From positions 25,389 to 89,388 of the forward strand of contig DASSMK010000346.1 of assembly GCA_035688915.1 (NCBI GenBank): DNA of 64,000 nt. Direction: 5' to 3'. Positions 855 to 5,586 of the stretch are shown piece by piece. The stretch's first letter is position 1, and each line of letters begins with the position of its first letter. The stretch comes from Thermoanaerobaculia bacterium (GTDB taxonomy: Bacteria; Acidobacteriota; Thermoanaerobaculia; Gp7-AA8). The notes under the pieces were generated by a model. The model did no database searches, had not been told where the DNA came from, and saw only the letters and a program-made list of their open reading frames with translations. The position numbers and the translations under genes are program-made.

Positions 855-877
855 ATTGACGAAAATGCGGAAAAGCG
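855..877. repeat. integrase 3'-flank motif, copy 1: ATTGACG-AAAATGCGG-AAAAGCG
   Basis: The motif lies 14 nt downstream of the integrase-1 stop (minus strand). The same ATTGACG-N9-AAAAGCG arrangement is at 4916-4938, abutting the integrase-2 stop. Confidence 0.6.
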
Positions 878-891
878 TGCGTTCGCGCCGC

Positions 892-1494
892 TCAGCCGCC
901 ATCTGTCCGCGCGATCTCTCGCGAGGCCAGCGCTGCGCGGTACTTGGCCTCGCGTCGCTTGTTCGTGATGCGGAAGTAGATGAGCGTCGAGGAGATATCG
1001 CGATGCCCGAGCCAATCCTGCACATCCGCGACGTCCCAGTTGGCGTTCGCGAGATGCACGCCGATCGAATGCCGCAGCACGTGGACATGGCGGCGGTCGG
1101 TGGGAAGGCCGGCGGCGGCAGCGTACGTGTGGAAAAGCCGGTTAACTTCGCCGCCCGATAGCGGTTCATCACCGCGACGGCGACTGCGGAGAAGGTACGG
1201 CGATCCCTCGGTTCGTTCCGTGAGGTAGCGGGCGAGCAGTTCCTTACTTCGCGGGTGGAGCGGATACGCGCCTGACAACCCGTGCTTTCGACGCGCAATC
1301 CAGAGTTTTCCGTCCTGGAGGTGGTCCAGCTTGAGGAGCCCCGCTTCGCTGCGACGTAGGCCATGGCGGTAGACGAGATCAAAGAGCAACAGATCTCGCG
1401 TTCGTGCCTCGGGGATCTTGCGGAAGAAGCGCTCGACTTCTTCCCGAGAGAGGTACTTGATTGCGTCCTCATCTCCGCGCTGACCTTCCGCCAT
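892..1494 (-). CDS. tyrosine recombinase / phage-integrase-family protein (about 200 aa, Xer-like size)
   Basis: The C-terminal catalytic region reads HVHVLRHSIGVHLANANWDVADVQDWLGHRDISSTLIYFRI (R..H..R..Y signature). The N-terminus has the core-binding-like stretch LLFDLVYRHGLRRSEAGLLKLDHL. The start was moved to the internal Met (ATG read at 1492-1494); the longer ORF 892..1746 has an Arg/Ser-rich junk N-terminus. Confidence 0.85.
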   Translation of the reverse strand: MAEGQRGDEDAIKYLSREEVERFFRKIPEARTRDLLLFDLVYRHGLRRSEAGLLKLDHLQDGKLWIARRKHGLSGAYPLHPRSKELLARYLTERTEGSPYLLRSRRRGDEPLSGGEVNRLFHTYAAAAGLPTDRRHVHVLRHSIGVHLANANWDVADVQDWLGHRDISSTLIYFRITNKRREAKYRAALASREIARTDGG

Positions 1495-1930
1495 TCCGCG
1501 CTGCTTCTCCGCACGGCTGGCGACTCTAACGCTTTTCCGCAAAGACGTTCGTTGGGATGAGTTGGACGGGCGAGCGTCTCTCACTATGCAGCGCACGCCC
1601 GCGGACGTAAATACCGTCCGGACGCTCAACACGAACGCGTGAGGTACGACTGTATGGCGATACGACGCACGGCACCTCCGCACCCCACTAAGACACGTAA
1701 GGGCGGCTACTGTGCTCTTGTTCGCGCTCTGCGCATCGTGCTTCACGACGCTCGCACCTGTGGGGACGGTCGCTCACCTGCACCACCGCAAGCCGCGCCA
1801 CCGGTAGCGCCCCAGCAGCCACTGCTGCGTTCGCCCCTAGTGCGGGACGGTTCCCGTCGTACCCGGATTGTTCAACTTTGGACATCGCTCGTGGGCGATG
1901 TCGCCCCTCCGGAGTGAAGGTAGCCACGCG

Positions 1931-2620
1931 ATGCCGAAACGCATGAGATCCACCGCCGTCCCCAACAGCAAGGCTCCTACGGGTGTCACAGATCGCACGC
2001 TGATCCGCGAGCTCTTCATCGAGCGGATGCCGTTCTACTCCTTCGACGACACGCGTCGGCTCACGCGATCCACACCAGCGGCAATCGATGCAGCGATCGC
2101 CACTGGAGAGATCGCGCCCGAGACGTACCGCCAGCACGTCGTGCTCCCGTGGGATGACGTCGCGCGGCTCGCGCTCGACCGGTGGACGCCGAGGATGATT
2201 GATGGCGCGCTTGGCTCCACCGATCGGCTCGCCGCGATCCCCCTCCTCAACCGCGTCCAGCAGCTGGCGGTGTTCCTCCCGGTCTACCAAGTCCGGCTCC
2301 TGCACTACCTCGCGGAAACGAACCGCGGGCAGTTCCGTGCGCGCTTGAACGCGAGCGACGTGCTTGAACAACACCTCCTCGATCTGGCGAGCGCCGTGGA
2401 CGCCGATGAGCTTGAGCTAGCAATTCCAGGCTTCCAAGCGGCGTGTCACTACCCCACGTTCGTCCCGCGCGCTGACGACTGGGGTACCGCCTTCTGCTGG
2501 TACTGCGGACGCGTGAGTGACGTCCCGGGCCAACAGATCTGCACGGATTGCCACGCGCGTCACGAGCCCCGGCCACACCTCGGTGAAGACGGCATCCCAG
2601 AACTGGACGAGGAGGAGTGA
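1931..2620 (+). CDS. hypothetical protein with a C-terminal CxxC...CxxC zinc-ribbon-like motif
   Basis: ORF 1868..2620 with the start moved to MPKRMRSTAV, which has a GGAG-like site upstream. The C-terminus reads CWYCGRVSDVPGQQICTDCHARH. The overlapping minus-strand ORF 1688..2374 is Arg/Glu-rich and looks like a shadow ORF. Confidence 0.5.
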   Translation: MPKRMRSTAVPNSKAPTGVTDRTLIRELFIERMPFYSFDDTRRLTRSTPAAIDAAIATGEIAPETYRQHVVLPWDDVARLALDRWTPRMIDGALGSTDRLAAIPLLNRVQQLAVFLPVYQVRLLHYLAETNRGQFRARLNASDVLEQHLLDLASAVDADELELAIPGFQAACHYPTFVPRADDWGTAFCWYCGRVSDVPGQQICTDCHARHEPRPHLGEDGIPELDEEE

Positions 2621-2687
2621 TACAGGTGATGCAGACGAACGAGCGAATCTTTTTTTGCGTCTGTAAGACACTGAAAGGAGTCATGCC

Positions 2688-3597: not shown

Positions 3598-4229
3598 TGA
3601 CGATCGCGCGTCTGCAACGGGGTGTGACGCTTACGGACGTCCTGGTGCACGAGGCCGGGCACGCGGTTGCGGCCTGGGAACTCGGCGTGCGCATCGGCGC
3701 GGTGCGCGTGCACGTGCGCGTATGCGAAGGCAGGATGACATTCGCGAGCGACGTGGGGCTCGGCCGTTTCCCGGTGGGCTCAGATGCGCTGCGGCTCGCA
3801 ATCGAGCGGGAGATGGTCGTGTTCCACGCGGGCCTCGTCGCGCAGCGGCGGTTTCACTACGAGGGCGCGTGGGGGCTCGTGCCACGCACGGACTATGAAG
3901 GCATCCTCGCAGTGGCATCGCAGATCGAGACCGACCAACGCCTCATCGACGAGTGGTCGGACTACGCGGAGGAGCAGGCGCGCGCGCTGATCGAGCTCCC
4001 GCAGACCTGGCGGCGAATCGAGGCGCTCGCGGTCGAACTCGCGCGGCAACCGGTGCTCCATGGTAGCGAGATCGACGCGTTCCTCTCCGGTATCCGCGTG
4101 CCGAAAGTCGGGAACGCTCGGCGCAGGTACCGGCGACGCGAGGCGAAGGAGCTGTTCTGCCTCACGCACGATCCTGAGGATCGGGAGCCACTGGAGCGCG
4201 CGATCGCGTCCGTGCGGGGGACGCGATGA
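3597..4229 (+). CDS. putative zinc metallopeptidase-like protein (HExxH; FtsH/M41-like HEAGHA motif) with no ATPase domain
   Basis: The start was reassigned to the ATG at 3597, which overlaps the upstream stop; the ORF-track N-terminal extension 3351-3596 overlaps the upstream gene. The motif is LTDVLVHEAGHAVAAW. Confidence 0.55.
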   Translation: MTIARLQRGVTLTDVLVHEAGHAVAAWELGVRIGAVRVHVRVCEGRMTFASDVGLGRFPVGSDALRLAIEREMVVFHAGLVAQRRFHYEGAWGLVPRTDYEGILAVASQIETDQRLIDEWSDYAEEQARALIELPQTWRRIEALAVELARQPVLHGSEIDAFLSGIRVPKVGNARRRYRRREAKELFCLTHDPEDREPLERAIASVRGTR

Positions 4230-4434
4230 CGGATGCCTTCTTCGACCATCGTCGGAGGTTCATGTGCGCGTGCAGCCGCCTGCTGCGGTGGCACTGGAGC
4301 AGGGCGGCGAACCGAACGGCCCTGCCGAGACTACGGCTGCGCCGCGTTCCGGGGCGGAGGCCATCTGCCGCTGCGGCAATGGCAAGAACGTACGCGAGCA
4401 GCACCCGAATGGGGCACTGTGAAGAGGCGGACGA

Positions 4435-4824
4435 GTGCGGGTGCACGGAGGCTTAGGCGACATGATTCGGGTCGATGATTTCCCTGTGATCGAGTCAAAG
4501 ATTCGATCGGCGTTGCGACGAGCAGGCGTGAAACGGCGCGTCGTCGAAACACGCATGCAGCGGATCGTCCGCGCGGCGAGCACGATCATGAACCCCTGCA
4601 TGTCGCTCCAGCACGCCGCTACGACAATCAGCGTCGCCGACCTCTACGGCGCGCTGTTCATGGTCGTCGTCGCCGACACGTTCCGCGATGGTGAGCAGCC
4701 GGGGATTGCCGGCGACTTCTTCCAATTCACGGAGAACGATGTCGCGCTGCTCCACCGTGTATTTGTACTGCTGCACGAGCGCTACTTCGGCTTTCCGCCC
4801 TATGGTCTCGATCGAGAGCTCTAG
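4435..4824 (+). CDS. hypothetical protein
   Basis: ORF with protein-like composition. An alternative start is Met10 at 4462. Confidence 0.4.
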   Translation: MRVHGGLGDMIRVDDFPVIESKIRSALRRAGVKRRVVETRMQRIVRAASTIMNPCMSLQHAATTISVADLYGALFMVVVADTFRDGEQPGIAGDFFQFTENDVALLHRVFVLLHERYFGFPPYGLDREL

Positions 4825-4915
4825 CCCACCGTCGCCGTCACTCCTTGTCTTGGCGGATCCACGCCGTTCTCCTTTCGCGCGGAGACTTAGCTCGTTGACC
4901 GACTCATCAATTTCG

Positions 4916-4938
4916 ATTGACGCTTTTGATGAAAAGCG
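4916..4938. repeat. integrase 3'-flank motif, copy 2: ATTGACG-CTTTTGATG-AAAAGCG
   Basis: It directly abuts the integrase-2 stop codon (4939-4941). The local region is AT-richer than the rest of the window. A 7-bp inverted repeat TCATCAA/TTGATGA (4899-4905 and 4921-4927) overlaps it. Confidence 0.6.
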
Positions 4939-5586
4939 CTACTCCGGTGCGGTAACCGCAAAGTCGTTCGACCGAACCATTCGCTCATAATTCTGATCCC
5001 TCCGCTTGTTTGTAATCCGTGCATAGACGAGCGTCGACGTGATTGACCGATGTCCCAGCCAATCCTGTACGTCGGCCGCGTCAAAACCGGCGTTCATCAT
5101 GTGCACCGCGACCGAGTGTCGCAGGACGTGCACGTGGCGGCGGTCTTCCGAAATCCCGGCGCGCGTCGCGTAGTGGCGAAATAGCTGGTAAATGAGCGCG
5201 ACGGAAAGAGGGTTGGGGCGATGCCGGAGGCCGCGGAGAAGAAAGCGGCAGCCGTCGAATCGCCGCTCTTCCTGTAGGTACCGTCGGAGGAGTTTCCGTG
5301 TGACGGGGTGTAGCGAGTACGTACCCGGCACCGCGCCTTTCAGGCGTGGAATCCAGATGCGATCTTCCGGAAGCACGTCCTCGAGCCGCAGCAACGTCGC
5401 CTCGCGGCGGCGGAGGCCGTGGCGATAGATCAGGTCGAACATGAGCTGGTCACGAGTGTTGTCCGGCGAGATAGTGCGGAAGACCTGCTCGACCTCATCT
5501 TTCGTGAGGTACGAAATGGCACCTCGGCCGCCGATCGCCGCGCGCAGGCCTTCGTCGATGGTCGGCAGTGTCACGCTTTTCATCAA
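4939..5586 (-). CDS. tyrosine recombinase / phage-integrase-family protein, paralog of 892..1494
   Basis: The catalytic region HVHVLRHSVAVHMMNAGFDAADVQDWLGHRSITSTLVYARI and the stretch QLMFDLIYRHGLRRREATLLRLEDV are collinear with integrase 1. Confidence 0.85.
   Translation of the reverse strand: MMKSVTLPTIDEGLRAAIGGRGAISYLTKDEVEQVFRTISPDNTRDQLMFDLIYRHGLRRREATLLRLEDVLPEDRIWIPRLKGAVPGTYSLHPVTRKLLRRYLQEERRFDGCRFLLRGLRHRPNPLSVALIYQLFRHYATRAGISEDRRHVHVLRHSVAVHMMNAGFDAADVQDWLGHRSITSTLVYARITNKRRDQNYERMVRSNDFAVTAPE

Follow-up and report, generated by a model that had tools for sequence, protein, structure and literature searches.

The present study analyzes two small tyrosine recombinase genes, Rec1 and Rec2, and the short sites that bracket them in a 64,000-nucleotide stretch of a Thermoanaerobaculia bacterium assembly (GCA_035688915.1, contig DASSMK010000346.1, positions 25,389 to 89,388), here called the window. 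Patterns detected in the window and in related loci make it fairly probable, in our judgment, that each unit is a self-flipping switch for a divergent cargo, with the recombinase inverting the DNA on which it is itself encoded. An original prediction had noted two paralogous recombinases of about 200-215 amino acids (aa), in one orientation and with conserved catalytic motifs, each followed 3′ of its stop codon by the motif ATTGACG-N9-AAAAGCG, and had proposed a duplicated recombinase-plus-site unit, either nested or tandem integrative elements or a cassette delimited by the two motif copies. The paralogous genes were confirmed, both on the minus strand, the motif is exact at 855-877 and 4916-4938, and the duplicated unit is supported in that the sites are of a genuine recombination type and the units behave as portable modules. 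What had been missed is an inverted partner site at the 5′ end of each gene. Because this partner lies across the site's own gene, the predicted invertible segment is each recombinase gene and not the segment at 1.5-4.9 kb.

Each gene lies between two 26-bp sites, one downstream (D) and one upstream (U). Site D1, downstream of Rec1, is at 856..881 on the plus strand and reads, from outside inwards, TTGACG AAAA TGCGGA AAAG CGTGCG; U1, upstream of Rec1 at 1526..1551 on the minus strand (CGAACG TCTT TGCGGA AAAG CGTTAG), repeats the centre and inner arm of D1 in inverted orientation, with a −10-like TAGAGT just inside it. Around Rec2 the corresponding sites are D2 (4917..4942, plus; TTGACG CTTT TGATGA AAAG CGCTAC), downstream, and U2 (5570..5595, minus; CTCCTC TTTT TGATGA AAAG CGTGAC), upstream. 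D1 is conserved in all loci of the W1 group. D1 and D2 contain the two motif copies; the end of the first is 14 nt from the Rec1 stop codon, and the second abuts the Rec2 stop codon, which D2 overlaps. The repeats are perfect over 13 bp for Rec1 (TGCGGAAAAGCGT, at 866-878 and 1529-1541) and over 15 bp for Rec2 (TTTTGATGAAAAGCG, at 4924-4938 and 5574-5588), the matched centres of U and D are reverse-complementary (TGCGGA for Rec1, TGATGA for Rec2), and for D1 and D2 alike the partner is about 0.67 kb away, across the site's own recombinase gene. Inverted repeats, a matching asymmetric core and a cognate recombinase nearby, which are among the features of an inverton, were all found. It is unlikely that the two motif copies delimit the DNA between them (1931-4824), since their centres differ and each has its own inverted partner.

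The motif is not frequent in the window, where no further copy was found at up to two mismatches, and so it passes a check that had been proposed for it. Its count is weak evidence alone, with 0.36 chance matches expected and at least two seen in 8 of 100 shuffles, and its significance comes from its position and the comparative data rather than from the number of copies in the window. The 8-mer GAAAAGCG occurs six times in the window on both strands, four of these bracketing Rec1 and Rec2. As had been remarked, the second copy is locally AT-richer, with a guanine-plus-cytosine (GC) content of 49% within 50 nt either side of D2 versus 64.7% window-wide. About 200 nt beyond D1, a terminator-like hairpin of the intrinsic type followed by a T-run (634..659, minus) would end Rec1 transcripts in the present orientation. 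A candidate antisense open reading frame (ORF) from an ATG in D1 was dropped because it is not conserved, being short in Rec2.

The two products are 54% identical over 194 aa. Rec1 (892-1542, minus) is 200 aa long if read from the ATG at 1494 (892-1494), and its frame is open 5′ of that codon to a TTG at 1542, inside U1, giving 216 aa; the residues added are LRKSVRVASRAEKQRG, an N-terminal extension of the form L/M-RKSVRVA. Rec2 (4939-5583, minus; 214 aa) has its start ATG (5581-5583) in the centre of U2, with a TTG also at 5586. PF00589 was the sole Pfam match of each protein (100.2 and 102.3 bits, cut-off 27.1), and the catalytic set (R, K, H-x-x-R, H and the Y nucleophile) is complete in both, with R58/R59, K82, H152, R155, H178 and Y187 invariant in a 26-sequence alignment that includes them. 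The nearest solved structure was archaeal XerA 4a8e, over chain residues 105-270, its catalytic domain (E 5e-19). The window proteins align to positions 5-185 of the 198-200 in the FimB/FimE profiles of NCBIfam (PRK09870, PRK09871) with 60-67 bits, against curated cut-offs of 221 and 222, and to the NCBIfam XerA, XerC and XerD models with 78-101 bits, against cut-offs of 220-335, in the C-terminal catalytic part only; integron-integrase-specific (IntI) models gave 32-59 bits versus cut-offs of 265 and 435. An N-terminal core-binding domain was found in neither protein by Pfam, NCBIfam or structure comparison. Rec1 and Rec2 therefore consist of the catalytic domain alone, as follows from the PF00589-only match, the full-length but sub-cut-off FimB/FimE alignments and the C-terminal Xer alignments. 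The top protein match was 100% identical and came from a metagenome-assembled genome (MAG) of Thermoanaerobaculia (Acidobacteriota), and an exact look-up of the annotated 211-aa Rec2 protein returned no record. The family, compact and widespread, comprises at least 241 protein clusters at E≤1e-10, and 18 clusters at 50% identity at E≤1e-30. Several proteins of 640-690 aa (P0311, P0317, P0331 and others) have two stretches that each match a mini recombinase, an indication of catalytic domains arranged in tandem within a single chain.

Evidence that U and D work as a pair comes largely from related loci. Good loci numbered 45 in a scan of species-representative genomes, nearly all of them in MAGs of Thermoanaerobaculia or other Acidobacteriota, and a metagenome scan gave 80 more, for a total of about 125, mostly from Thermoanaerobaculia MAGs and soil metagenomes. 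The U-D layout is present in most of them, at a spacing of 660-690 bp. D lies 0-25 nt past the recombinase stop codon, with the TGA often within its inner arm, and U overlaps the start codon in all loci, covering an in-frame ATG/TTG-xxx-AAA-AGC-GT (MxKSV). The 26-bp consensus (TTSACG, a 4-nt A- or T-run, a 6-bp centre, a 4-nt run and CGTSAA) has the shape of a classical tyrosine-recombinase core site, with arms of about 10 bp and an asymmetric 6-bp centre; at up to one mismatch in the 12 arm positions the pattern was found 42 times in the 786 kb of loci, about 32 of these at U or D. At least 15 centre types occur between loci (TGGGTA, TGCGGA, TGTGGA, TGAAGA, TGCTGA, TGCGAG and others), and the centre of D recurs at U in 74 of 91 loci, compared with a mean of 8.6 and a maximum of 18 in shuffled pairings. 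Anchoring for this count was independent of the repeat search, and the misses are mostly anchoring errors. Covariation of centres in inverted orientation would be expected of sites that are partners in inversion. Where a MAG has several copies, their centres nearly always differ, as do those of Rec1 and Rec2, and such differences (TGCGGA and TGATGA in the window) would prevent cross-recombination between the two switches. The 4-nt run beside the centre is A4-like or T4-like, in all four U/D combinations among close relatives, and could vary through heteroduplex resolution in strand exchange or through arms arriving with new flanks. At L025 (7080-7135) a second copy of the half-site ...GAAAGCGTCAAC lies 43 nt past the D outer arm and may be the remnant of an earlier junction. 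At L043 (384-1090, on a contig from a Polyangiaceae MAG) the recombinase is truncated or frameshifted while U and D are both recognisable; either a switch in decay outside Acidobacteriota or an artefact of binning could account for this.

A second pattern concerns the genes on the two sides. In 84 of 86 high-GC loci, and in 77/77 confident calls, the recombinase and its upstream neighbour are on opposite strands, as judged by a codon log-odds strand test and the collection's own gene calls, while downstream neighbours are split 49 to 32. The collection's gene calls place the divergent neighbours 50-120 bp from the recombinase. Genes on the 5′ side are co-conserved with the recombinase in every subgroup and the 3′ flank is not. 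For Rec1 this neighbour is the cassette at 1919-4824 (orfA-D), which is always divergent from a Rec1-type gene in the 10 loci where it was found complete, with 70-89% aa identity (L006, L007, L008, L011, L024, L026, L027, L029, L031 and L045); orfA alone is retained in L012 and L023. The genomes, besides that of the window, in which a Rec1-type gene and its orfA-D cassette occur with no Rec2-type unit after the cassette thus number at least 10, and similarity ends past orfD with no D-like site there. From this conservation beside Rec1-type genes and the lack of a far site, 1931-4824 is therefore the cargo of Rec1 and not a segment delimited by the motif.

Direct evidence for inversion comes from a sister subfamily. 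Loci L032 and L036, whose recombinases are 89% identical, have common flanks on both sides of a recombinase segment that is inverted between them, and the breakpoints fall in 7-bp cores, C(C/T)CGGAT. When positions 7903-8588 of L036 were flipped in silico, four alignment pieces with L032 became one collinear block. The TTGACG arm is 3′ of the gene in L036, the usual layout, and 5′ of it in L032. A further case is the contig L034 (2,198 nt, a SPAdes-style node), whose last 55 nt repeat its own U outer flank exactly in reverse complement, so that the contig ends as inner D, centre and reversed U flank, a junction predicted for flipped molecules only; its sister loci L033, L037 (from JBDTOZ01, as L034 is) and L038 have a normal D outer arm. 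L034 is supportive and not conclusive, because such a contig end would also result from a real inverted repeat of 55 bp or more. Orientation polymorphism, which had been proposed as a check on the prediction, was thus detected for the recombinase segment, in relatives only (L032 versus L036, and the L034 assembly junction), and not for the segment between the two genes. For the window itself the predicted flipped junctions, obtained in silico, are ACATTGACGAAAATGCGGAAAAGCGTTAGAGTCGCC for Rec1 and GATTGACGCTTTTGATGAAAAGCGTGACACTGCC for Rec2.

If the units are self-flipping switches, the recombinase would bind U and D and invert the segment of about 0.67 kb that bears its own gene. In the standard orientation it would be divergent from its cargo (orfA-D for Rec1, a lipoprotein-like gene for Rec2), and in the flipped orientation it would read towards that cargo, co-directionally. 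For Rec1 the flip would join the fixed outer arm of D1, TTGACG, as a −35 element, at 17 bp to the gene-borne −10-like TAGAGT, and the rebuilt TTGACG-17-TAGAGT upstream of Rec1 would serve a rec-orfA-D operon, with the cargo ON. No sigma-70-like site was found at 500-6400 of the window in its present state. The in-silico flipped junction that faces the recombinase is promoter-like in 41 of 91 loci, including Rec1; by the same criteria promoter-like sequence was found at no standard U, at two standard D sites and at none of the other flipped junctions. In the naturally flipped L032, TTGACG-17-CAAAAT occurs at the junction facing the recombinase. In the Rec1 lineage the logic of the switch appears transcriptional, and we infer that the window copies may be active, with a rebuilt promoter setting the cargo ON or OFF. 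A promoter assembled at U in the direction of the cargo was also considered, and the hexamers gave no support for it.

The subfamily of L036 has a different arrangement, in which the 3′ end of the recombinase gene bears a ribosome-binding site and an ATG/GTG-AAT-ATC that reads out through D. In the flipped L032 the cargo ORF continues in frame from this outward start (MNIRVFISSG...), which overlaps the recombinase stop codon. In the standard L036 the same body of the cargo gene is left with only TTG/CTG and without a ribosome-binding site, and from the outward start an ORF of 13 codons runs to a TGATG at the start of a small gene past D.

Several observations weigh against self-flipping switches, or at least against the details proposed above. 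With only one flipped locus among about 125 assembled, any switching has to be infrequent, strongly biased or short-lived. Metagenomes were scanned for flipped junctions of the Rec1 and group-5 types with no match, and no flipped form of the window's own Rec1 or Rec2 unit was found. The sole other contig with an exact Rec1, from SRR25158187, is identical to window positions 726-2480 and in the standard state. The outer arm of U2 (CTCCTC) is degenerate. As for the promoter, the 41 positive loci belong mostly to one lineage, the Rec1 group, a flip of Rec2 yields only GACACT, a match at three of six positions, and the TTGACG arm is needed for recombinase binding in any case. In addition, the in-frame MxKSV extension suggests that translation starts inside U, and such a start fits poorly with a −10 downstream of it. 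Finally, inversion does not explain why similarity between loci breaks at the outer arm of D or why one module occurs in different contexts.

An alternative explanation, in line with the original prediction, could be that D is the attachment site at which a mobile element has integrated, with its integrase gene at the edge, two such elements being in tandem in the window, and that the recombinase excises and integrates the cargo together with its own gene. Nucleotide similarity between relatives does stop exactly at ...CGTCAA(T/C), the outer edge of D, so that the variable flank starts there as in an integrative element, and the outer 4-nt run varies together with the flank. One case is L053 and L054, where the recombinase is 100% identical and cargo plus recombinase 95% identical, with downstream contexts that are unrelated: the match runs to the final base of the D outer arm, past which there is a CBASS (cyclic oligonucleotide-based antiphage signalling) system in one and a gene of 1,256 aa in the other. 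Several modules are possible in one MAG, and modules cluster together and beside defence genes. An integrated element would not, however, account for the only matching partner of each D being inverted and across the recombinase gene, and no partner in direct orientation was found at the cargo end, beyond orfD or the cargo stop codon, in any group. D1 and D2 differ in their centres, no transfer RNA gene adjoins D in the window or the 45 genome loci, whose downstream flanks are unrelated, and target duplications were not seen. Target-derived DNA would not be expected to give an outer arm that is identical between independent contexts, as it is here, relatives of the recombinases are absent from plasmid and phage collections at E≤1e-20, and integron-like site arrays were not found downstream of D in 786 kb of loci. 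With these tests negative, we regard the proposal of an integrative element as improbable.

A broader reading is tentative, and we think it possible though unlikely. The units would be portable phase-variation cassettes of an undescribed kind, in which a tyrosine recombinase of 200 aa, lacking a core-binding domain, flips its own gene between two 26-bp sites. With the flip, one part of a split promoter would move to the cargo, or, in one subfamily, a ribosome-binding site with its start codon. Diversification of the centres would allow many orthogonal switches to coexist in a genome, and the module of cargo plus switch would relocate, with its breakpoint exactly at the outer arm of D, by a mechanism unlike known integration or transposition.

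The similarity of U and D could also arise because one protein binds both, with U an operator for autorepression and D a separate resolution site of the dif type. This would fit the overlap of U with the start codon in all loci and the greater symmetry and better conservation of D, the outer arm of U being often degenerate, and in XerS/difSL the recombinase gene adjoins its own site. An operator would not need a centre that tracks that of D, yet covariation extends across at least 15 variants, and the inversion between L032 and L036 has breakpoints in both cores. Multiple copies per genome with distinct centres are also a misfit with chromosome resolution, and on balance we give this explanation little credence. 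A minimal transposon of the insertion-sequence type, bounded by the inverted repeats, is a very improbable reading of the 0.67-kb unit, even though the unit is a single gene between such repeats with several copies per genome. At about 50-70% identity, the copies in any one genome are old paralogues and not recent transposition products; the upstream neighbour is co-conserved in every subgroup, so the 0.67-kb unit does not move alone; no target duplications were seen; and identical 0.67-kb units in flanks unrelated on both sides are absent among the 125 or so loci. Least probable of all is that the repeat acts in RNA, the 5′ and 3′ ends of the recombinase mRNA pairing to hide the start codon, for although the start codon lies within the repeat and covariation would be expected here too, mismatches in imperfect pairs (L010, L016) show no G-U bias, the most conserved part, the D outer arm, takes no part in the pairing, a DNA site is indicated both by the dyad symmetry of D and by the inversion alleles, and an Rfam scan of the whole window gave no match.

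Read as self-flipping switches, the units share features with several known systems and coincide with none of them. FimB/FimE with fimS of E. coli, and the relatives MrpI and IpuA/IpbA, are likewise recombinases of about 200 aa without a core-binding domain, and they too act at short inverted repeats, in phase-variable expression of surface structures. FimE expression depends on orientation. In fim, however, the element is a 314-bp promoter segment with 9-bp repeats that does not include the recombinase genes, whereas here the recombinase gene itself would be invertible and the 26-bp sites overlap start and stop codons. A recombinase gene inside invertible DNA is found in the Hin/hix H segment of Salmonella, but Hin, which depends on an enhancer and on Fis, belongs to the serine recombinases (resolvase/invertase family), in contrast to the PF00589 tyrosine recombinases here, and the H segment carries a complete outward promoter where the present units appear to have a promoter (in one subfamily, a ribosome-binding site and start codon) split across the site. 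The Xer/dif systems (XerA, XerC/D, XerS/difSL) provide the best catalytic-domain sequence matches and have arms of about 10 bp, a 6-bp centre and a site beside the gene; they differ in that here two inverted sites occur per gene and several orthogonal copies per genome. Lastly, the exchange between L032 and L036 of the 5′ end of a surface-protein gene, the swapped piece being the ribosome-binding site, start codon and first codons, resembles gene-altering inversions and shufflons (Rci; hsdS, PglX). Unlike shufflons, it involves a single site pair and no array of alternative coding segments, and the swapped piece is on the recombinase gene itself.

The kind of element is in itself already known, as shown by a review-type statement that an invertase can be encoded within the invertible region (PMC9881135), and no description of this family of mini recombinases was found in the literature searched (including PMC3414803, PMC9881135 and PMC11602134). 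Phase variation by inversion is known mainly from host-associated bacteria, and if the present reading is true it would extend to abundant, uncultured soil Acidobacteriota (Thermoanaerobaculia). The design would be unusually economical, since a single piece of DNA of 0.67 kb would encode the enzyme, be the element that inverts and supply part of the expression signal. Both the recombinases and their sites are small, the former very much so, and the natural variation of the centres suggests sets of orthogonal site pairs, which may be of interest to builders of recombinase tools. The sharp boundary at D also raises the question of how units of switch plus cargo spread.

The cargoes are mostly secreted or surface proteins, and examples include repeat-rich secreted proteins of 420-517 aa (L053, L036), a C-type lectin (L056) and a protein with a signal of the twin-arginine translocation (Tat) type (L052). 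In the window, no family match was found in Pfam, PHROGs, NCBIfam or PADLOC for orfA-D or for the lipoprotein-like gene. The first gene of the Rec1 cargo, orfA (1931..2620, plus; 229 aa), has a C-terminal zinc ribbon of the Cys4 type, and its N-terminal domain tentatively resembles a MerR/Xis winged helix, judging from a model with a predicted local distance difference test (pLDDT) score of 66 and local structural matches to Pukovnik Xis, RdfS and GlnR at E 0.1-0.9. It is followed by orfB (2863..3597, plus; 244 aa), a paralogue of orfC without HEXXH, and by orfC (3597..4229, plus; 210 aa), a standalone FtsH/M41-like metalloprotease domain with the motif HEAGH. The AlphaFold model of orfC (pLDDT 81) matched protease domains of the FtsH family in a Foldseek search against the PDB (template-modelling score about 0.55, E 3e-4). 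Its family is narrow, with members 80-89% identical; distant relatives of the domain (P0156-P0160) are fused to the C-terminal domain of the RNA polymerase alpha subunit (PF03118), which hints at a DNA- or transcription-associated role for proteins of this type. The last and most variable gene is orfD (4435..4824, plus; 129 aa), with a weak terminator-like hairpin after it at 4851-4866. The cargo of Rec2, divergent from it at 5614..6345 (plus), is a lipoprotein-like secreted protein with a signal peptide ending ...PLMFAC, weak homologues of which are encoded upstream of related recombinases in L001, L002, L034 and L037.

Switch modules appear to collect in variable, defence-type islands. On one Joint Genome Institute (JGI) contig, L053, at positions 1-3600 and 5713-10642, a Rec1-type cargo set (orfA of 229 aa, then genes of 211 and 210 aa) stands beside a group-2 switch module, just past whose D site a helix-turn-helix regulator and CBASS genes (SMODS, SAVED) begin. 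At L001 a Rec2-like module (8001-8593) is separated by 5 kb from a Rec1-like module with orfA (12846-14170), and the order matches that of the window; the two module types are thus paired more than once. The cargo of Rec2 is adjoined in the window by an 857-aa STAND-type NTPase with NB-ARC and TPR domains (6380-8953, minus), for which PADLOC gave no match. Against its mean GC content of 64.7%, the window has anomalous composition in three stretches, at 31-36 kb (69-75%) and at 49-53 and 62-64 kb (55-60% in each).

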